Both the position numbers and the translations under genes were made by a program. The notes below the pieces were generated by a model. The model was not told the DNA's origin, ran no database searches, and saw only the letters and a list, made by a program, of their open reading frames with translations. From Candidatus Heimdallarchaeota archaeon (GTDB taxonomy: Archaea > Asgardarchaeota > Heimdallarchaeia > Heimdallarchaeales > Heimdallarchaeaceae): 16,109 nt of DNA. The stretch covers positions 1-16,109 of the forward strand of contig DAOVER010000058.1 in assembly GCA_030668875.1 (NCBI GenBank), read 5' to 3'. Positions 1 to 16,109 of this stretch are shown here, in pieces (within the stretch, counting starts at the first letter, position 1; each line of letters opens with the position of its first letter).

Positions 1-161
1 TACCATTCCCCTTCAGGGTCCTCGTTATGTCTTTTCATCCACTTATAGATGAACTTCCTGCTGACCATAAACGCTCTAGCTAGATGGGTAATGTTTTCGC
101 CATTCAAAGCCTTTTTAACTACAATTTTTCTAAGTTTTACCAGGTTACGTTGGGGTTTCAT
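1..161 (-). CDS. N-terminal HTH of a transposase, IS481-like (truncated by window start)
   Basis: Manual translation from ATG at 161 on the minus strand gives MKPQRNLVKLRKIVVKKALNGENITHLARAFMVSRKFIYKWMKRHNEDPEGEW, open to the window edge. 'LARAFMVSRKFIYKWMKR' matches the A-x-x-F-x-VSR-x-x-x-YKW-x-x-R HTH of IS481/IS3/IS630-type transposases. GGAGG/GTGAT RBS-like sequence lies upstream. Confidence 0.8.
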   Translation of the reverse strand, partial: MKPQRNLVKLRKIVVKKALNGENITHLARAFMVSRKFIYKWMKRHNEDPEGEW

Positions 162-362: not shown

Positions 363-1799
363 ATGAAAACTGTACAGGATGTTACGGAAATTGAAGCTAA
401 AAAAACTAGCATGAAAAATGTTTTTCTCTGGTCTAGTTACGATGCTGCTGACACTCTATTTAGTCAAGCTATTCTAAGTATTGCTTTTCAACCTTATATC
501 CTTATCTTGGCATACCAGATGGGGGTGACAGATTATGGTAATGCTTTTATGATGATGTCTATATTTATGGCGGTATCAAATCTGATTGCTGCTTTGTTAG
601 GACCTATAATAGGTGCATTAAGCGATACAATTGGCAAAAGAAAACCTGCTGTTCTAATGTCAGCAGCTTTAATGCTTACTGCGACGTTTGCTTTCATGGC
701 ATGGAGGAATTATTGGTGGGCGATTGTGTGTTTTGTATTTGCAAATGTAGGATATCAATCTGGAAGGCTTTTTTTTGATTCGATGATTCCATTCATTTCA
801 AAAACTGATGAACGAGGGAAAACTTCAGGGATTTCTGGAGCTTTAAGTTTCATAGGAACCTTTGTAGCAATAGGTTTAGGTATGCTTGCCTGGAGCTTAT
901 GGGGAGAATATTTAGAACCTGCTAAACTGTTTTCTGGCAATTGGTTTGTAAAAGATCCTTTTGGGGGTTTAGTCTGGTTATTTGGTATCTCTGCGGTAGC
1001 AATAATACTCTTCTCAATACCGTTCTTATTTAGTAAAGAACGAGAGGGAGAAAACAAAAACAATTTCAAAACGAATTTCAGATTGTCACTGGTTAGTCTA
1101 AAATCCACTTTGAAAGAAATAGGGAGGTATAGAAATGCTTGGTTATTCATTCTTGGTTGGTTTTTAGTTACTGATGCTGCCAATACAGCGATACTCTATA
1201 TGCAATTGGTTATTGTAGATGGAGCAGGAGCAACACCTACTGAGGCGTTGATGGTTATTGCCATGGGTGGGCTACTATCGATGATTGGGGCAATTGTTGT
1301 AGGTTTACTACTAGATAAATTTGGACCAAAGAAGAATTTCTTGATTAACATTATTTCATGGTTCATTGCTGTCACTCTAGTGATTCTCACTGTTGTGGAA
1401 ATTAATGGACAACGCATACTTCCATGGCAAGTTATGTTTGGTGGAGCATTCTTTGTAGGTCTTGGATTTGGAGGTCTGTGGATCATAGGACGACAGTTTG
1501 TATTTGAAATAGCCCCGCCAAAGAAAGTAACACAGTACCAAGGTATAAAACAAATTGCGGGCAGAGTAAGTGCAATACTAAGCCCACTTTTATTTTTAGC
1601 AATTTTTGGTGCTGCTGGAAGTTGGGGATTAAGTATTTCAAACAGATACGCTCTCGCTCTTCTACCTCTGTTAATACTATTTATTATAGGGTTTATTGTG
1701 ATGTGGCAATATGTAGATGTTCATCCTGAATATCTAGCAGGAGAACGAGCGCCTTACAAAAAATTCTCGGATCGTTCTATCAAAAAGAAAAAGGATTAG
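363..1799 (+). CDS. MFS transporter, UMF1/Atg22-like
   Basis: About 12 hydrophobic segments; N-terminal 'WSSYDAADTLFSQAILS' resembles the UMF1/Atg22 W-x-x-YD-x-A motif; MFS motif-A-like loops 'GALSDTIGKRK' and 'GLLLDKFGPKK'. Confidence 0.85.
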   Translation: MKTVQDVTEIEAKKTSMKNVFLWSSYDAADTLFSQAILSIAFQPYILILAYQMGVTDYGNAFMMMSIFMAVSNLIAALLGPIIGALSDTIGKRKPAVLMSAALMLTATFAFMAWRNYWWAIVCFVFANVGYQSGRLFFDSMIPFISKTDERGKTSGISGALSFIGTFVAIGLGMLAWSLWGEYLEPAKLFSGNWFVKDPFGGLVWLFGISAVAIILFSIPFLFSKEREGENKNNFKTNFRLSLVSLKSTLKEIGRYRNAWLFILGWFLVTDAANTAILYMQLVIVDGAGATPTEALMVIAMGGLLSMIGAIVVGLLLDKFGPKKNFLINIISWFIAVTLVILTVVEINGQRILPWQVMFGGAFFVGLGFGGLWIIGRQFVFEIAPPKKVTQYQGIKQIAGRVSAILSPLLFLAIFGAAGSWGLSISNRYALALLPLLILFIIGFIVMWQYVDVHPEYLAGERAPYKKFSDRSIKKKKD

Positions 1800-1827: not shown

Positions 1828-3096
1828 TTAAATAAATTCTTTAATTATTGGATGAGTAGTTACTGTTTGTATCCATTCTATTTTATCTATTGACTTTTCT
1901 AATAGACTCAGAGTTTTTCCGATATTCCTGATTTTGATGTTAATGAGAAGGTCGTATATCCCTGTTATGTGTGAATAGTTTTCCACGCCTTTCATTTTTA
2001 TTAGCTCATCAGGAACAATTTCAACTCCTTGTTTAACCTTCGCTAAAAGGATAATCCTTGTTTCAGATAAAGCTAAAGCAATAACACCTATAAGGATTAG
2101 AATTGAACCCGATATTTTTAATGTGATGCTTGAGGGGTCGCTAAATCCACTCTCAAGGAGTTCAGGTACCCATATACCAGCAATTAGAACAACTGGAAAC
2201 GTAAATACTACACTTATGCTGCGCAAAGCCCTCACAATTGACATTTTACCCATAGTTAAAGCTCTTGAATAAAGGACTATGGATGCGAATGTGATAACAA
2301 CAGAAAATACTGTTGGAAGCATCGCAGCTTCCCAGTTGTCAACAAAATCAACATATCCACCATTAATTAAGGATGGAATAACAGCTATACTCTGTGCAAA
2401 AGTCATAATTAGAAGGGTCCACAATCTCAAATTGATAGAATCGAATACTTTCCCATTATTATCTTTTGTAGTAAGAGCTTTCTTTTGGAAGTAGATATAA
2501 AACGATGCAAATATTGCAAAAGGTCCAATGACCAGTAATATTCCAGTTATATCTACTCCATTACTACCCCCTGTTAGTGATGCTATTATTACACCGACAG
2601 CAATCATAGCTATTGACTGTATCTCTACCATTACAGGTTTTTCTTTGTCTGTTATGAACTCACCAATTAACAGATAGATTAATACGAATTGACCAAAAGA
2701 CATGATCACTGAAGATCCTTTTCTATTCAGAAGAATAAAATAGATTATGGTGGTTCCTGAAGAGAACAACCCCGCAAGAAGTGTGTATAGACCAATTTTT
2801 CCTTTAGGAAAACGAAATCTTGAGAAATTCTTGTCGATGAAATAACCTAAATTATATCCTCTCTCATTTTCACTTTTCCGCTTAACAGGCAAATGTAATA
2901 GCAAAATTATAACAACTGTTATGACAAACCCAACTACAGCTTGAAAAGCTCCCAGAATGTAAGGATCAAGTAGATGTTTTAAACTGATAATATCATCTAA
3001 TACAACAAATATGCTCATTAGAATTCCGCTTGATAAACCAAGCAGATAGAAAGTACTCTTTCTTCTAAATTTGCTTACTGATCTTGTTTCTGGCAT
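1828..3096 (-). CDS. DMT/EamA-like membrane transporter fused to a C-terminal Lrp/AsnC ligand-binding (RAM) domain
   Basis: About 10 TM segments in two EamA-like halves ('YFILLNRKGSSVIMSF...GEFITDKEKP' and 'YSRALTMGKMSIVRALRSISVVF'). The last ~75 aa (RIILLAKVKQG...HITGIYDLLINIK...IEWIQTVTT) carry the RAM 'TG-x-YD' signature. Confidence 0.8.
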   Translation of the reverse strand: MPETRSVSKFRRKSTFYLLGLSSGILMSIFVVLDDIISLKHLLDPYILGAFQAVVGFVITVVIILLLHLPVKRKSENERGYNLGYFIDKNFSRFRFPKGKIGLYTLLAGLFSSGTTIIYFILLNRKGSSVIMSFGQFVLIYLLIGEFITDKEKPVMVEIQSIAMIAVGVIIASLTGGSNGVDITGILLVIGPFAIFASFYIYFQKKALTTKDNNGKVFDSINLRLWTLLIMTFAQSIAVIPSLINGGYVDFVDNWEAAMLPTVFSVVITFASIVLYSRALTMGKMSIVRALRSISVVFTFPVVLIAGIWVPELLESGFSDPSSITLKISGSILILIGVIALALSETRIILLAKVKQGVEIVPDELIKMKGVENYSHITGIYDLLINIKIRNIGKTLSLLEKSIDKIEWIQTVTTHPIIKEFI

Positions 3097-3106
3097 TAGT
3101 TTTCAA

Positions 3107-3355
3107 TCATCCACTTATTTCTTCCTTTTCTATTACTGCCGTTTGGGTATCAATAATGCCATCTATCATGTGAATTATTTCTGTGGAGATGCGATATTTT
3201 TCTTCAAGATTCTTAGTCGTAATCCTTGCTATTATATCATATTCCCCTGTAACAACTGCAACACGAATGATTTCTGGTATCTTCCTTAATTCATTAACTA
3301 CATGAGAGGTTTTACCTAACTCTACTGAGAAGAAAATATAAGCTGAAATAGTCAT
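3107..3355 (-). CDS. Stand-alone Lrp/AsnC ligand-binding (RAM) domain protein, no HTH
   Basis: 82 aa, 'AYIFFSVELGK...VVTGEYDIIARI...IDGIIDTQTAVI' is a typical AsnC C-terminal pattern; 10 bp upstream of the DMT-RAM gene. Confidence 0.9.
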   Translation of the reverse strand: MTISAYIFFSVELGKTSHVVNELRKIPEIIRVAVVTGEYDIIARITTKNLEEKYRISTEIIHMIDGIIDTQTAVIEKEEISG

Positions 3356-3462
3356 ATAATCTTATTTTAGTCATGGTAAAATAAACTTTCCACTGATGTG
3401 AAAATTTTACTTTTAGATTCTTTTGAACTACTAGACAAAACAACATGGAAAATATGCAAATT

Positions 3463-3509: not shown

Positions 3510-4424
3510 ATGCCAACTAATCTCCATCCTGAGGATAAACTTCGAAAAAAGATGCAAGAGTCTTATGAAGAAGAAGAGGATGTAGACCTAATTTTGGGGA
3601 AGAAAGACTATACAGAAGTAGATATTAAGGAGTTACAAATACGTAATAAAATTCTCCTTGAGGCTTTAAGAAAGGTTAAACTGCTTGTGGAAAGATTACT
3701 AATTCAGAACAGAGAGCTAAAACGAAGAGTAGAAATTTTGGAAGTGGAATTTGATGAGCAAACAAAGAAAGGCGTTCAGATGGTGTCTGTTGCAAGATAT
3801 AAAGAAATGCAAAACAATGCTACAGAACTAGCAAGAAGCATGCCAAAACTACTCAAACTCATAAAATTACTTAATAAGGAAAATAAGTTGGTCAAGGATA
3901 AATATTCTGCTCTGGAGAATGAATTTGAAGATTTAATTGATGAACGGGATGATCTTAAACAAAAGATATTCCAATTGAATGAAACTAATCAGGAACAAGT
4001 TATAACTGAGTTAACAGAGTTATTCCCGTCTGATGCTATTGCTGCAAAAGTGGCAGATGCTATATCCACTTCCAAAGAAGTTGCAATCATTAACAACAAT
4101 ATAGAACCTGATGCTCAAGCAATAGCTACAGCTACAAGTGTTTCTGTTCCAAGTTTTGAAGACCAAGCAAGAACTGACTTAAATCAAGTAGCTGGCTTCA
4201 ATAATGAACAAATTTCAAAACTTGTTGATTTGGTTATGGAAATAAATCACAAAATTGAAAATCTGAGTGGAACAATGGTTATTCCTGCTTCTGTAAGAAG
4301 AAGAGGAAAAGCAAATCTTGATCTAACAGACGCTATTACTGAAGGTGAAATGGGCGATCTGGATGATCCACCCGATAGACCTGATTTAGAGGAAGTTCTT
4401 GATGATATCTTGATTTCTGGTTAA
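3510..4424 (+). CDS. Hypothetical coiled-coil protein with internal 58-aa duplication and acidic tail
   Basis: Heptad-rich L/E/K/R segment at about aa 38-165; aa 40-83 align with aa 98-141; acidic/Pro C-terminus 'DLDDPPDRPDLEEVLDDILISG'. Confidence 0.8.
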   Translation: MPTNLHPEDKLRKKMQESYEEEEDVDLILGKKDYTEVDIKELQIRNKILLEALRKVKLLVERLLIQNRELKRRVEILEVEFDEQTKKGVQMVSVARYKEMQNNATELARSMPKLLKLIKLLNKENKLVKDKYSALENEFEDLIDERDDLKQKIFQLNETNQEQVITELTELFPSDAIAAKVADAISTSKEVAIINNNIEPDAQAIATATSVSVPSFEDQARTDLNQVAGFNNEQISKLVDLVMEINHKIENLSGTMVIPASVRRRGKANLDLTDAITEGEMGDLDDPPDRPDLEEVLDDILISG

Positions 4425-4481
4425 TTTTGAATTGTGCAAAAACATAAAAACACTTACTTCATCCACCTTTTGTGCATAGAT

Positions 4482-4925
4482 ATGACTGACTCTCAGAGAT
4501 TGGAATATGAACTTAGTATGGTTAAATTGGATGATTACAAATTTATAGTTGATTTCAATAAAGATACAATACCTGACCTTTTTATGGATGAATCTGAAGA
4601 TGTTCTAGGTGGGAAAGGAACAGGACCAACTGCATCAATGTTGCTTGCTGCTGCAATTGGAAATTGTTTATCTGCGTCTTTGAGTTTCTGTCTTACTAAG
4701 AAAAAGCATTCAGTGAATGAACTTAAAACGAAAGTTATTCTTTTTCGAGAAAGGAATAAAGAAGGTTTCTGGAGGATATCTGAAGTCAATGTTTCTATTA
4801 CTCCCAATATTGAAAATTCAGAAGATAAATCAGCACAACGTTGTGTGGAGCTGTTCAGGAAATATTGCGTGGTTTCTTCTAGTTTAGAGGAAGGCATTAA
4901 AATAAATGTGAGCATAGAAAAATAG
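4482..4925 (+). CDS. OsmC/Ohr-family protein
   Basis: 'GGKGTGPTASMLLAAAIGNCL' and 'FRKYCVVSSSL' contain the two conserved OsmC-family cysteines. ATG at 4482 preferred over the track's upstream GTG at 4434. Confidence 0.85.
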   Translation: MTDSQRLEYELSMVKLDDYKFIVDFNKDTIPDLFMDESEDVLGGKGTGPTASMLLAAAIGNCLSASLSFCLTKKKHSVNELKTKVILFRERNKEGFWRISEVNVSITPNIENSEDKSAQRCVELFRKYCVVSSSLEEGIKINVSIEK

Positions 4926-5105: not shown

Positions 5106-6104
5106 GTGATTACGATTCCACCCGTAAGGAACCCAACAAGATCATCGAATGTATATACAATAAATGTTCCAGGAAACTTCAAGAGTGCTGTTCTAAAGCA
5201 ATCTAGAGCTTTTGGAGGAGCAAGCGAGATAATTACTCTTTCTTTGGATGATTTAGCTATTAGAATCAGACAAATGAAGAATAAAATTGATATTATTGCG
5301 GAAATGAATGATTATATCAAATTAGAAATATTACTTATGAGACGATATGAAGAAGAATCTAAGGCTAAAAAAGATTCGAAATTATCTTTTAGAATTAAGA
5401 ATCACATGAGTGTTGAAAGCCTACAAATCATCAAGAAAAAGACAGGTTGGTCAACATCTAAATCGGTCAGAGTGGCTCTTCTTTGGTACTTGTATACTAA
5501 TTTTGATGAATTTGTTGCATCTGAGAGTTTTATTCCTCTCTTAAGATGTAAACATTGCGGTTTTGTAACACATGATCAACGAGCTTTAGGAGTACATATT
5601 CAAACCCTTCATGAGACAACATGTCCTTACTGTGGAAAGCATTATCCTCTCACAGAAACTCACCAGTGTGCTCAGATGGAAGCAGCAGGTGTTGATGTTG
5701 GAGAAATTACTCGTTCTCCTTCTCAAACAACTATCGATCGTTTTACATCTGGCCATCTAGCAGATATAGAATTAAATGAATCAAAATTGTTACAAGAGCT
5801 CGGAATGGATGATTTAGGAACACTCAAACCAAACGATAGCCAATCAAGTGACATGTCAAAATCGATTCCTGACAAAACTATATTTGATGAATCAGAATTA
5901 CAACTTGAAAGTATTAAGGATGAGATATCCAAAGTTGGTGGAACTCTAGTTGATTTACCAGATGGAGATGAATTAGCATCTTCAAACGATGATAAAGAAA
6001 CTAAGAAAAAGTCTAAAAAGGATAAAGATGAAACTATAGATAAGCTTCAAAGCGAAATATCTGAAATATTGGATTCATTGAGAGAAGATGGACTTCTCGA
6101 GTGA
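5106..6104 (+). CDS. Putative DNA-binding protein: two RHH-like motifs, C2H2 zinc finger, CCHC-type knuckle, acidic low-complexity tail
   Basis: C148-x2-C151-x12-H164-x4-H169 finger; C173-x2-C176...H186-x-C188; RHH-like segments at aa ~16-50 and ~92-130 ('KLSFRI...KKKTGWSTSKSVRVALLWY'); D/E/S-rich tail. GTG start. Confidence 0.75.
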   Translation: MITIPPVRNPTRSSNVYTINVPGNFKSAVLKQSRAFGGASEIITLSLDDLAIRIRQMKNKIDIIAEMNDYIKLEILLMRRYEEESKAKKDSKLSFRIKNHMSVESLQIIKKKTGWSTSKSVRVALLWYLYTNFDEFVASESFIPLLRCKHCGFVTHDQRALGVHIQTLHETTCPYCGKHYPLTETHQCAQMEAAGVDVGEITRSPSQTTIDRFTSGHLADIELNESKLLQELGMDDLGTLKPNDSQSSDMSKSIPDKTIFDESELQLESIKDEISKVGGTLVDLPDGDELASSNDDKETKKKSKKDKDETIDKLQSEISEILDSLREDGLLE

Positions 6105-6164: not shown

Positions 6165-7019
6165 ATGGCTAGTTCGTTACGTATTCTGCTTTGTGAGGAT
6201 GATGATGATATAGCTTTTCTCATCAAAATCAACATTTTGAAAGTATTTCCAGGGGCAAAAATAGAGATCACTAAGACAAAAGAAGATACTCTACAGTGTT
6301 TATATGATTTGAAATACGATGTTGATGTAATTCTGCTCGATTATTTGTTGGTAAATACGACTGGTTTAGAAATATTAGAAGAGATAAGAAAGATTACCGA
6401 AATACCAGTTATTATAATAACAGGACAAGGCTCGGAAGAAGTTGCAGTTAATGCAATGAAAATGGGTGCTTCAGATTATATAGTTAAACGTGGACGATTT
6501 TTCAATGAAATACCTAATGTAATTGAAAAAGTAACTAAAGTTGAATCTAAATATGATTTAGACAAAATCTTTGTAGCTTTTTATCGCTTCGGTGATAGAG
6601 GAACTGAACCTATTTACATTAATAAAATCCCAGCAGAATACGAAGATGTTCGAGAAACTGTGATTTTATCTCTTGGAGTATTGTTGTACACTCTGTTTGG
6701 AATGTGTGAACTAGATATGCTTGAAACAGGTATGACTCTTTCTGGTCCTGTTAAAATTCCAAAAATGAAACAATACAATTCTACTAGTTTCCTCTATGTT
6801 GTACGCGATAAAAATCAAAAAGATCCTAGACTAAAAGGTAATGATTTCTGCATTGTAGCTTTAGGTTATCCAAATGAGTATTCTGATTTGGTTTATGAAA
6901 TTGATAAAATAAAAAACATACTCAATAATTTCTTTGAAGATATAAAAGATATATCAGAGATAGAAGATAGAGCTGCCAACGTTGAAGAACAAATCTACAA
7001 TGTAGTAAGAAGATTTTAA
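6165..7019 (+). CDS. Response regulator: receiver domain plus C-terminal longin/uDENN-like domain
   Basis: REC residues intact (E11-D12, D59 in 'ILLDY', T86, K108). Output domain aa ~134-284 starts with the hairpin 'IFVAFYRFGDRGTEPIY' and contains 'GPVKIP' and 'DKNQKDPR'. The REC call is firm; the output-domain call is tentative. Confidence 0.8.
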   Translation: MASSLRILLCEDDDDIAFLIKINILKVFPGAKIEITKTKEDTLQCLYDLKYDVDVILLDYLLVNTTGLEILEEIRKITEIPVIIITGQGSEEVAVNAMKMGASDYIVKRGRFFNEIPNVIEKVTKVESKYDLDKIFVAFYRFGDRGTEPIYINKIPAEYEDVRETVILSLGVLLYTLFGMCELDMLETGMTLSGPVKIPKMKQYNSTSFLYVVRDKNQKDPRLKGNDFCIVALGYPNEYSDLVYEIDKIKNILNNFFEDIKDISEIEDRAANVEEQIYNVVRRF

Positions 7020-8182
7020 GTTACCATTTTTTGAAAAGTTTCCTCGTATTTATCCAGAATTTTTACGACTTCTGACTCCCAATTAAATTGGATTGTATAA
7101 GCGTCTTTTGCCCTTTTCTTCATCTTATTTAGTTTTGTTTGATTTTCATAGAGAGATATTATTGCTCTTGCAATTTCCTCTGGAGAAGTAGCATCAATGA
7201 GAACCCCTATATCTTCAAAACCAGTTATAGCTTTTTGTAATCCTTCAAAATTTGAACCAATGAAGGGAACACCTGCTGAACAGTATTCATATAATCTGTT
7301 TGGCATTCGAAGGAAATTATTTTTTCCTGGTTGGAAAAGAATTAGACCTATATCACAGGATCTCATGATAGACAAAGCTTCCTTGTAATCCATCCAACCT
7401 GTAAGGATGAAATAGTCTCCAAGATTTCTTTCATGAATGTCCATTTTCATAGGTTTATAAGCAGCACCAGACCCCATAACTAAGAATTCAATATCACTGC
7501 TTGGTATTTTCTCTCGAATAATCTCAACTGCATCTACAGTTTTATCATACCCTAGGTTACTGTACATTACACCAAAGTGGACAATACGGAATTTTTTTGT
7601 TCTTTTTAAATCATTGGGGATCTCTAACTTGTGTGCTACTTCTATATCAGTTTTAGAAGGATAGTTGGCAATCCAAGAACTTTGAACACCATACTTTCTT
7701 TGTAAATTATCTGAATATGTTTCTCCAGCGGTTACAATTCCATGAACTTTTTTGATATAGAACCTTTCTAACCAAGTATAAGCCCATAAAGCTAGAAAAC
7801 CAAAAGTTTCAGACATTTGTTCTGGAAAATTTTCGTGACTATCATATATCATTATCTTGCTATTTTTTGATAACTTCCCAGAAAGAGGAAGAACATTAAG
7901 GTCATGAAAATGAATAATGTCAAACTGCTGCTTACCAATCATCTTTCTAACATTTTTCCAAAACTCGAAATATTTGAAAAAGATCTTCTTGGTGCTTGGA
8001 ACTCTTAAGATTGTATAACCATCCCGCTTTTCATTTTTAGATAATTTACCAGTTTTATCTATACCTATTACAGTTACTTGATGTCCTTGTTCACTAAGAA
8101 ATCTTGCTTCCTTTTCAACTCTAACATCAGGAGCAACTGTGCTTAAAACCACCATTAAAATATTCCAAGGTTTTTGAGCCAT
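7016..8182 (-). CDS. Glycosyltransferase, GT4 family (GT-B fold)
   Basis: N-terminal 'DVRVEKEARFLSEQGHQVTVIG', 'IIHFHD', and C-terminal 'PNRLYEYCSAGVPFIGS' donor-binding motif. Confidence 0.9.
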   Translation of the reverse strand: MAQKPWNILMVVLSTVAPDVRVEKEARFLSEQGHQVTVIGIDKTGKLSKNEKRDGYTILRVPSTKKIFFKYFEFWKNVRKMIGKQQFDIIHFHDLNVLPLSGKLSKNSKIMIYDSHENFPEQMSETFGFLALWAYTWLERFYIKKVHGIVTAGETYSDNLQRKYGVQSSWIANYPSKTDIEVAHKLEIPNDLKRTKKFRIVHFGVMYSNLGYDKTVDAVEIIREKIPSSDIEFLVMGSGAAYKPMKMDIHERNLGDYFILTGWMDYKEALSIMRSCDIGLILFQPGKNNFLRMPNRLYEYCSAGVPFIGSNFEGLQKAITGFEDIGVLIDATSPEEIARAIISLYENQTKLNKMKKRAKDAYTIQFNWESEVVKILDKYEETFQKMVT

Positions 8183-12077: not shown

Positions 12078-13034
12078 CTATCCAGTTGCAAAAGATAGAA
12101 GAACAGATCCTCCAACAATTATCGCTACACCTATCACTTGAGGCATTTTGATTTTCTCTTTAAGAAATAAGTATCCAAATAACAAAACAAAGAATGGTGA
12201 AATCGAAGAAAGAGGTGTGCTTATAGCTGTATCAATCCACATATTTCCAATAACAGTGAAAAAAGACACTCCACCTATACACCATGAAACCACCCCTCCA
12301 CCCATTAAAATGCCTAATTCTTTAAAGTGAATATTTTTAAGCATTTTAAGACCTCTATTCTTAATCAATGATGAAATTAATGCGAAAACAAGAGCCACTA
12401 CAACCATTATACCATTTCGAACACCCATCATTGGTATAACTTCTACATCTGTTCCCTCTAACAATCTTCTAGTGAAAAATATTGTACCTCCCCAGAAAAC
12501 TGCGGCAATTAGAGCTAAGATTATCCCTAAGATAAACGATTTCTGGTTCTCAGTTTCACTTGATTCTACTTTAGTTTCTTTTTCCATTTCATTATTGTTT
12601 CTTGAAAAAAAGGTAATTGTCGCTACACCAATTGCAATAAGAATTGCCCCCACTATGATCTCCCAACTTATCACTTCTGTTCCTGTAATTACAAGAAGTA
12701 AAATTGTAACAAAAGGATAAATTGTAGTAATCGGTTGAGAAATGGAAACATCAATCTTTTTCAGAGAAAACAAAGAAAAGAAGTCACCAAGAGCAATAAA
12801 AATAGCTGATAAAATTAACCATAGAAGATTTTCCCCAAGAAATGGTTGAGCTAAAGAACTTGGCGTATAGAAGATAAGTCCAATTATTAGTAATATTGGA
12901 ACAGCTAATAATCCTTTTACATACGTCGCGGTTAAAGGATCGGTGTTTTTCACTCCAACTTTGAATATTACCATGCCTGTACCCCAGGCAAGAGCTGCAG
13001 TAAAAGACAAAATGATTCCTAACGCAACTGACAT
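12078..13034 (-). CDS. DMT/EamA-family transporter
   Basis: About 10 TM, two EamA repeats: 'ALAWGTGMVIFK', 'SLKKIDVSISQPITTIYP', 'AVFWGGTIFFTR', 'PLSSISPFFVLLFGYLFLKEKI'. ATG at 13034 preferred. Confidence 0.9.
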   Translation of the reverse strand: MSVALGIILSFTAALAWGTGMVIFKVGVKNTDPLTATYVKGLLAVPILLIIGLIFYTPSSLAQPFLGENLLWLILSAIFIALGDFFSLFSLKKIDVSISQPITTIYPFVTILLLVITGTEVISWEIIVGAILIAIGVATITFFSRNNNEMEKETKVESSETENQKSFILGIILALIAAVFWGGTIFFTRRLLEGTDVEVIPMMGVRNGIMVVVALVFALISSLIKNRGLKMLKNIHFKELGILMGGGVVSWCIGGVSFFTVIGNMWIDTAISTPLSSISPFFVLLFGYLFLKEKIKMPQVIGVAIIVGGSVLLSFATG

Positions 13035-13155
13035 CAACTTCGGCTTATTGCGTGAGTAAAAAAAGTTTGTTACAAATACAAAATATGTACTAGTTTGTTA
13101 TCAATCAGAACAATAGTTTTTTAATTAGTTCTTCAACTTACAATTGGTTATAATA

Positions 13156-15240: not shown

Positions 15241-16109
15241 ATGTTAACTAAAGGGAAAAGAATAACAAAGTGGCTAGAAACAACTATCCCTTTAGTACTT
15301 AATCCAGGAACAATGAAACAGCTGTATTTGTGTAAAGCTCAAGCTAAAATCTTGGCTTTTGCACAGCAACTTTTACCTTACAAACAACAAGCTAATTCAG
15401 CTCTGCAATTCCACCATCTAATCTATAAACGGTTCAAGTATCTAGGTATACAGAGCCAAGTACAAGAAGCAGTACAGAGAAGAGTGTATGCAGCAAAACG
15501 AGCTAAAACATTTCATCATTTTCCGATGGAATTTAATTTTCCTCGTAGTGGGAATCTTACTTTATCTGAGAGAGGAAATGCTATAGTTAAAGTCTCACCA
15601 CTCAAGAAGCGTATTGCTCTCCCTATTGTGATGAATGGTGGGTGGAGAAGAGTAGAAGAGCATAGAAAAGGAGGATGGGAAGCACACAGCTGTAAAGTAT
15701 TTAAAAGAAAACAATCCTGGGTAATGCATCTTATTATGCGTAAAGCACTTCCCCCGCCCCAAGAGGTGGAAGGGACCATCGGTGTAGACATAGGAAGGAA
15801 GATCATGGCAGCTATTACAGTCAACCATCCTTCGTTCCCGCTGGTGGAACAATATCTTGGGAAAGATCTGGCATGGAAACAGCACCAGTTCTACAATCGC
15901 AGAAAAACCTTTCAAAAATATGCTGCGCAAGGAGATAAACGTGCACGGCGTGCACTTAGAAGATTAAGAAGAAAAGAAACAAAGTATGTTCAAACCCGTT
16001 GTGCTCAACTAGCACATAAAATAGTAGACCTAGCTGTAATATCCCGTTCAGCTATAGTTTTGGAGAACCTCAAGCATTTACGAAGAATGTGGACGAAACA
16101 AGCTATGAA
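15241..16109 (+). CDS. tnpB: TnpB-family RNA-guided nuclease (IS200/IS605, IS1341-like), truncated by window end
   Basis: Open frame from ATG 15241 to the edge (289 full codons, in-frame stop upstream at 15217): MLTKGKRITKWLETTIPLVLNP...FHHLIYKRFKYLGIQSQ...; RuvC-I 'TIGVD(183)IG', Arg-rich helix 'RARRALRRLRRKE', RuvC-II 'IVLE(275)NLKHLR'. Confidence 0.9.
   Translation, partial: MLTKGKRITKWLETTIPLVLNPGTMKQLYLCKAQAKILAFAQQLLPYKQQANSALQFHHLIYKRFKYLGIQSQVQEAVQRRVYAAKRAKTFHHFPMEFNFPRSGNLTLSERGNAIVKVSPLKKRIALPIVMNGGWRRVEEHRKGGWEAHSCKVFKRKQSWVMHLIMRKALPPPQEVEGTIGVDIGRKIMAAITVNHPSFPLVEQYLGKDLAWKQHQFYNRRKTFQKYAAQGDKRARRALRRLRRKETKYVQTRCAQLAHKIVDLAVISRSAIVLENLKHLRRMWTKQAM

Follow-up and report, generated by a model that had tools for sequence, protein, structure and literature searches.

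The subject of this analysis is a two-gene module in a stretch of 16,109 nucleotides from Candidatus Heimdallarchaeota archaeon (contig DAOVER010000058.1 of assembly GCA_030668875.1), hereafter referred to as the window. The window has a G+C content of approximately 33%, and its closest relatives are Candidatus Heimdallarchaeota metagenome-assembled genomes. Two open reading frames (ORFs), arranged head to tail on the minus strand, constitute the module. The upstream ORF (3107-3355) encodes a free RAM protein of 82 residues that contains the motif VVTGEYDII and lacks a helix-turn-helix (HTH). The downstream ORF (1828-3096) encodes a protein of 422 residues, containing the motif HITGIYDLL, in which a membrane part is fused to a second RAM domain. 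Residues 1-345 of this fusion (2062-3096) comprise the transmembrane part, predicted to consist of 10 helices with the fold of the DMT superfamily and both termini inside the cell, and residues 346-422 (1831-2061) comprise the cytoplasmic RAM domain, which begins about three residues past the tenth transmembrane helix (TM10) and is followed by the stop codon TAA at positions 1828-1830, as read from the sequence. The stop codon of the free RAM gene (TGA, 3109-3107) and the start codon of the fusion gene (ATG, 3096-3094) are separated by a spacer of 10 nucleotides (3097-3106), and therefore both genes are presumably transcribed as a single transcript. A first-pass annotation had placed an HTH-less RAM gene 10 bp upstream of the fusion, and the positions of both ORFs as well as the length of the gap were matched exactly.

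Upstream of the free RAM gene lies the TATA-box-like element TTTATTTTA (3377-3385, minus strand), whose centre is located about 26 nucleotides upstream of the ATG and which could possibly serve as the promoter of a leaderless transcript comprising both genes. Beyond the fusion stop codon lie a tract rich in T and a short inverted repeat; both overlap with the 3′-end of a convergent MFS gene and represent a candidate terminator. None of the 20 sequencing runs listed for the stretch is an RNA run; all of them are DNA contigs, mostly from marine sediment or cold-seep metagenomes.

The free RAM protein matched PF01037 with 49.5 bits, well above the cut-off of 25, and its best sequence matches in the PDB were the RAM halves of FL11/PH1519 from Pyrococcus and the stand-alone RAM proteins 2cvi and 2e1a. 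In the Pfam scan no HTH family scored in either the free RAM protein or the fusion. As neither protein possesses an HTH, neither of them is an Lrp/AsnC transcription factor, and the names under which the fusion is often found in databases, 'Lrp/AsnC family transcriptional regulator' or 'DNA-binding Lrp family transcriptional regulator', are misnomers.

For the C-terminus of the fusion the PF01037 score was 23.3 bits when the whole protein was scanned and 27.4 bits for the last 90 residues alone. At the level of the family, 32 of the 33 fused members matched PF01037 at E<=0.01, and the profile of the fused family matched the stand-alone RAM structures 2cvi, 2e1a, and 2zbc with E values of 1e-12 to 1e-11. 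Moreover, an AlphaFold2 model of the fusion (21 homologues; predicted local distance difference test score, pLDDT, of 77; predicted template modelling score of 0.72) comprises ten transmembrane helices, the last spanning residues 321-342, followed with almost no linker (about three residues) by a beta-alpha-beta-beta-alpha-beta domain with strands at 346-354, 371-376, 383-389, and 409-415 and helices at 362-366 and 394-404. Foldseek superimposed this modelled domain on FL11 (1ri7) with a root-mean-square deviation of 1.6 Å over 78 columns and on DM1 (2e1a), 2zbc, and 2cvi with target TM-scores of 0.71-0.73. The C-terminal RAM domain proposed in the first-pass annotation is thus upheld by modelled fold, structural matches, and family profile, with a borderline Pfam score, and maps to nucleotides 1831-2061, in agreement with the position of about 1828-2060 given there.

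The description of the membrane part as DMT/EamA-like withstood scrutiny in one respect: the ten-helix DMT fold was recovered, but the fusion itself has no match to the Pfam family EamA (PF00892) at E<=1. EamA is matched by 21 of 33 relatives of the fused family, with a best E value of 5.9e-10. The family profile likewise returned no PDB match among DMT carriers, the sequence similarity to solved ones being too low. The assignment of this protein therefore rests on its fold, since Foldseek matched the modelled membrane part to the triose-phosphate translocator 5y78, LicB 7b0k, SLC35, and YddG 5i20 with a probability of 1.00 and target TM-scores of 0.6-0.85. The odd-numbered loops of the fusion contain 16 lysine and arginine residues and the even-numbered loops none, which places both termini, and therefore the RAM domain, in the cytoplasm. 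Taken together, the model and the profile matches confirm the prediction that the fusion is a DMT-fold membrane protein ending in a cytoplasmic RAM domain. A longer form of the fusion, with 468-470 residues, occurs in one family of the class to which the window belongs (L051:1153-2559 and L052:1144-2556); its N-terminal region is extended and divergent, and the profile matches it in two parts, with the break near position 70.

Across the family, D34, E158, G168, D219, and R224 are the invariant residues of the membrane part. When 33 fused members and 40 RAM-less relatives were aligned to one profile, D34, G168, and D219, together with G84, D88, and W226, proved common to fused and RAM-less members. 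In contrast, E158 and R224 are each present in all 33 fused members and in none of the 40 RAM-less relatives. A similar distribution was observed for K284, present in 30 of the 33 fused members and essentially absent from RAM-less proteins, where S, A, P, and H are commonest, and for R278, present in 29 of 33 and variable in the RAM-less group, where Q, K, T, and A prevail. S344-E345 at the end of TM10 occurs in fused members alone. According to the modelled helices and the loop charges, all of these fused-specific residues lie in loops that face the cytoplasm or at helix ends on that side. Given that a linker of three residues obliges the RAM domain to lie at the cytoplasmic face, we infer that the fused-specific residues may represent a docking surface that co-evolved with it.

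The two RAM domains of the module differ in the residues that contact the ligand in characterised members of the family. [quoted passage not shown] With residue equivalence to Grp resting on identical spacing and on the alignment with FL11, the free RAM protein carries the complete G-x-x-D and T-x-T set (G37, D40, T70, and T72). Among 39 non-redundant free/fused pairs, the free RAM proteins retain the glycine and the aspartate without exception, the first threonine in 36, and the second threonine in 37 cases. The complete set is not found in the fused RAM. Here, G379, D382, and T414 are kept and V412 replaces the first threonine; among the 39 pairs the fused domains retain G in 38, D in 36, and the second threonine in 29 cases, and the first threonine in none, the position being always occupied by V, I, M, F, or L. 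A further, fused-specific feature is a near-invariant arginine (R390 here; 38 of 39), at which position the free RAM is variable. The two domains also differ in net charge, which is positive for the fused RAM in 38 of 39 pairs (mean +4.1) and negative for the free RAM in 35 of 39 (mean -5.0). Canonical ligand sites are located between RAM dimers and not within one (PMC2995911). The motif pattern suggests composite sites to which the free subunit would contribute the T-x-T strand. Such sites would explain why the gene for the free RAM is never lost.

The conservation of the gene pair was assessed in loci collected from assemblies, from species genomes, from 20 additional genomes representing different families of the phylum, and from the window. 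Two profiles, one for the free RAM and one for the entire fusion, were run against every ORF of these loci. In each of the 44 loci in which the fused gene is complete, a free RAM gene directly adjoins it on the same strand; it is located upstream in 37 loci, downstream only in four (all of one family), and on both sides in three, with gaps between free and fused genes of -26 to +42 nucleotides. Two further loci without a free RAM gene are cut off by contig ends. The expectation that the pair is conserved, raised together with the first-pass annotation, was therefore borne out, and its recurrence in 44 of 44 loci argues that the pairing did not arise by chance. The genes flanking the module vary between lineages. 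The nearest RAM-less relatives had no RAM neighbour in three distinct contexts (five loci, L032-L036).

With regard to distribution, a word-indexed search returned about 30 relatives, and all named ones among them were from Asgard archaea, mostly Heimdallarchaeota. An exhaustive profile search yielded about 30 clusters (at 50% identity) at the full DMT plus RAM length, scoring from 641 down to 135 bits and separated by a gap from RAM-less relatives of about 340 residues that scored at most 102 bits. The named fused members belong to Heimdall-, Baldr-, and Odinarchaeia, Thermoplasmatota, Nanohaloarchaea, and Woesearchaeota, and the module as a whole is carried by Heimdallarchaeal and other Asgard families, Thermoplasmatota, Woesearchaeota, and Nanohaloarchaea. 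Among 300 genomes sampled from the phylum to which the window belongs, 131 encode the full-length fusion, and more than one copy per genome is rare.

The free RAMs are on average 39% identical among themselves and the fused RAMs 29%, versus 23% between the two groups. Maximum-likelihood phylogeny placed 36 fused RAMs in one clade (support 100/99) and the free RAMs in the other (90/92), and the sub-topologies of both clades mirror each other; two pairs from DPANN archaea are long-branch outliers. The clade of free RAMs includes those encoded downstream of the fusion, which are orthologues of the upstream ones, as well as the third RAMs of three loci. The simplest reading of this tree is that free and fused RAMs are two old paralogues with a single old origin, which would have been inherited together with an occasional flip of gene order. 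The third RAM genes overlap the stop codon of the fusion (L003:7263-7502, L049:2751-3002, and L050:1935-2186), and all three loci belong, by their kinship labels, to the same taxonomic order as the window. Their motifs are degenerate (G14 to D/N, Y39 to N/S, the first threonine to Met, and G66 to Glu), and they branch inside the clade of free RAMs with a support of 100/100.

The genome of the window (92% complete) contains five matches to PF01037, namely the fusion, its partner, two other free RAMs, and one Lrp protein with HTH and RAM domain. The two other free RAMs (C87:5234-5467 and C40 near 102.5 kb) were considered as encoded partners of the transporter and dismissed, as they are found in unrelated contexts and fall outside the clade of the module's free RAMs. 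Stand-alone RAMs are unusually numerous in G001, an Asgard genome of 1.4 Mb, in which about nine of 13 PF01037 matches lie in frames of under 100 residues.

Modelling of a hetero-oligomer of the two RAM domains, which had been proposed along with the first-pass annotation, was performed with residues 344-422 of the fusion (alignment of 23 rows) and the free RAM protein (15 rows), and the RAM-RAM interface was supported in silico. The complex reached an ipSAE score of 0.80, versus 0.14 for the best of three controls; the mark applied to this score is attained by 58 of 80 solved complexes and by 2 of 110 mismatched pairs, a rough guide only, as our own alignments were used. Three runs agreed in 100% of the contacts, with a pLDDT of at least 92 for the partner. 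The predicted interface consists of a reciprocal pairing of strands, in which fused residues 374-378 align with free residues 72-77 and fused residues 416-419 with free residues 33-35, as in RAM dimers. The model thus supports a canonical RAM heterodimer of the free and the fused domain. A precedent for mixed assemblies is provided by the free RAM protein DM1, which forms a hetero-octamer with FL11 in vitro (PMC2995911).

These data led us to favour, by a little more than even chances, a model in which a cytoplasmic amino acid or a related metabolite is sensed by a RAM hetero-oligomer that gates the transporter allosterically. Pairing of the basic RAM on the transporter with the acidic free RAM, via the usual beta-sheet interface, would give rise to a hetero-oligomer underneath the transporter. 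A cytoplasmic amino acid or related small metabolite would then bind at the RAM interfaces, where the free subunit would provide a full G-x-x-D and T-x-T site and the tethered subunit only a part of one. The ensuing change in the RAM assembly would be conveyed to the transporter by the near-zero linker and the putatively co-evolved face (E158, R224, R278, and K284), so that transport would be switched on or off post-translationally, as a protein-level counterpart of the Lrp-type transcriptional control of amino-acid exporters. Conceivable stoichiometries are a 1:1 heterodimer, (fused:free)n, and a dimer of fused RAMs with free dimers on its flanks, and the assembly could be a dimer, a tetramer, or the ring envisaged in the first-pass annotation. 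Export, as proposed in that annotation, is plausible in the form of an overflow exporter that would be opened by excess amino acid, analogous to Lrp-controlled exporters, and so is an importer that would be closed by trans-inhibition. More tentatively, and with distinctly less confidence than in gating as such, we consider that the module may represent a novel class of secondary transporters that are gated by a ligand and require the free RAM as their second subunit, with composite sites made of the tethered G-x-x-D loop and the free T-x-T strand, in which ligand occupancy would set the oligomeric state of the transporter and hence its activity.

Several points weigh against allosteric gating by a hetero-oligomeric sensor. 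The support for gating is wholly computational. The loci are related to each other and include a few duplicates, and thus the count of 44 of 44 overstates the number of independent cases, and the RAM domain of this particular fusion is borderline in Pfam (23.3 bits against the cut-off of 25). As RAM dimers have already been solved, the score of the complex may reflect likeness to known structures, and the model cannot distinguish a heterodimer from two homodimers. The asymmetry in charge likewise carries little weight, because the genome's remaining stand-alone RAMs are acidic as well and a domain apposed to the membrane is expected to be basic. Lastly, a 1:1 heterodimer on a monomeric transporter would lack a canonical site, and therefore a higher assembly has to be assumed.

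Against this background we weighed three other explanations, each of which appears considerably less probable to us than gating. RAM-like ferredoxin folds act elsewhere as plain dimerisation modules, and the RAM domains might have a structural role only, as a constitutive scaffold for oligomerisation or stability that holds transporters together or caps their cytoplasmic face without sensing a ligand. The loss of the first threonine of T-x-T in 39 of 39 fused RAMs would be in line with such a scaffold. On the other hand, all four ligand-backbone residues are retained in 36-39 of 39 free RAMs across phyla, and the glycine and the aspartate persist in most fused domains, a retention that is hard to explain without a ligand; we regard a purely structural role as unlikely. 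A different possibility is that the transporter acts as a transceptor, the RAM of which would hold or release the free RAM depending on substrate or ligand, and that the released RAM would join a full-length Lrp/AsnC regulator and alter transcription. Free RAMs can indeed enter hetero-octamers with full-length regulators, as known for FL11-DM1 (PMC2995911), and the window's genome encodes one Lrp protein with HTH and RAM (C40:92443-92835). Moreover, frames of the size of Lrp with a RAM domain were found in four of five other module-bearing genomes checked, the remaining one, G010 (77% complete), having none. However, the fused-specific invariants on the cytoplasmic face and the near-zero linker are as expected from tight mechanical coupling, the module's free RAMs form a clade of their own that has diverged in step with the fused RAMs, and the window shows no linkage of the Lrp gene to the module. 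Sequestration of this kind, akin to the alternative raised in the first-pass annotation, strikes us as improbable.

The assembly might also be a homomeric sensor, in which fused RAMs pair with each other and thereby generate a transporter dimer, the homo-oligomers of the free RAM dock at the interfaces between dimers or act independently, and the modelled heterodimer is an artefact. In full-length regulators, both N-termini of a RAM dimer emerge on the same side, an arrangement that would suit two tethered copies (geometry deduced from PMC2995911). Ligand sites are located between dimers, and the pattern of motifs would be accounted for if the G-x-x-D loop of a fused RAM faced the T-x-T strand of a free one. 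We assign a rather low probability to this arrangement as well, and it is a variant of the gating model with the same function and another stoichiometry, not a true alternative to it.

We also considered naming the substrate from neighbouring genes. Peptidase M20 (L009 and L012), peptidase M29 (L010), AstE/AspA (L001), and tRNA-synt_1b (L032 and L035, both next to RAM-less relatives) hint at amino acids, and the neighbours proved too inconsistent for an assignment. A gene for a class-I tRNA synthetase of the Trp/Tyr type (PF00579) adjoins these two RAM-less relatives (L032:2-931 and L035:4104-5129) and is found near one fused member (L012:8249-8453), which may be a hint of aromatic amino acids or may be due to chance.

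As to the other genes of the window, the gene that converges on the 3′-end of the module (363-1799, plus strand) encodes an MFS/ATG22-like ('vacuole effluxer') transporter, a homologue of which also adjoins the module in L004 and L005. Proteins of the Atg22 type are annotated as amino-acid effluxers, and there may thus be a thematic link to the module. An internal contrast to the fusion is offered by an ordinary EamA transporter of 319 residues (12078-13037, minus strand), which matches PF00892 with 111.6 bits in two repeats and has no RAM domain. The window furthermore contains genes for an OsmC-like protein (4434-4925, plus strand), for a response-regulator receiver whose C-terminal half of about 170 residues has no Pfam match (6165-7019, plus strand), and for a GT4 glycosyltransferase (7016-8182, minus strand); response regulator, OsmC-like, and GT4 genes recur near the module in the Heimdallarchaeal loci L001 and L004. 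Two ORFs on the plus strand have no significant Pfam family: the one at 3510-4424 (304 residues) is rich in heptad-like charged repeats, and the one at 5106-6104 (332 residues) has a weak match to a C2H2 zinc finger. Pfam-less ORFs of similar size occupy the matching positions in L001. Both ends of the window carry transposase-like pieces, namely an HTH-containing fragment at 3-161 (minus strand), judged by eye, and a piece at 15241-16107 (plus strand) with a weak match to OrfB_IS605 of 22.4 bits, below the cut-off.

The components of the module are related to several known systems. Stand-alone RAM proteins, also termed 'demi-FFRP', such as DM1 of Pyrococcus horikoshii (2e1a, 2cvi) and STS042 of S. 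tokodaii (2zbc), resemble the free subunit in their length of about 80 residues, the absence of an HTH, the common fold, and the G-x-x-D/T-x-T motifs. DM1 binds amino acids and hetero-assembles in vitro with a RAM-bearing partner (PMC2995911). The known partner of DM1 is the DNA-binding regulator FL11, whereas the conserved, co-encoded partner of the free RAM described here is a membrane transporter. In a review, what stand-alone RAM proteins do in the cell is considered unclear, and the formation of hetero-oligomers is suggested as the reason for their existence (PMC2995911). With Lrp/AsnC regulators such as FL11/PH1519 and Grp of S. tokodaii the module has the effector domain in common, and the binding of the amino-acid backbone is probably alike (PMC2504300).

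On the transporter side, the ten-helix fold of the fusion is like that of the DMT carriers YddG (5i20), the triose-phosphate translocator (5y78), LicB (7b0k), and SLC35, the matches to which cover about 330-345 columns of the membrane part only. To our knowledge, none of these carriers possesses a cytoplasmic ligand-binding domain. Control of an amino-acid exporter by an Lrp-type sensor is established at the level of transcription, as for Lrp-BrnFE of Corynebacterium glutamicum. In PA2577/PA2576 of Pseudomonas aeruginosa, a RAM sensor is likewise linked to a DMT or amino-acid exporter by DNA binding and gene expression (PMC8707732). With the sensor welded to the transporter, as in the fusion, control would be post-translational. 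With respect to layout, transport proteins with tethered plus soluble regulatory domains include the RCK gating ring of MthK, KtrAB/TrkAH, and the C2 domain of MetNI, which mediates trans-inhibition. These systems share with the module an oligomerising cytoplasmic domain that binds a ligand, but their folds are unrelated and their carriers are channels or an ABC transporter, so that the likeness is one of analogy only. In the literature searched, the coverage of which was incomplete, we found no description of a DMT-RAM fusion, in agreement with the first-pass annotation, to whose author no characterised system of this layout was known.

Amino-acid exporters of biotechnological use are found in the very large DMT/EamA family, of which no member is known to us to be under direct allosteric control by a cytoplasmic ligand-binding domain. 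Stand-alone RAMs are common in archaea, and the conserved, co-diverging partnership with a transporter offers them a concrete and testable task. If the free RAM is indeed an obligatory subunit, this would be the first physiological role of stand-alone RAM proteins, and the fusion would be the first DMT carrier that is directly and allosterically controlled by a metabolite. The module is widespread in Asgard archaea, and its frequent annotation as a regulator inflates the number of transcription factors counted in these genomes.

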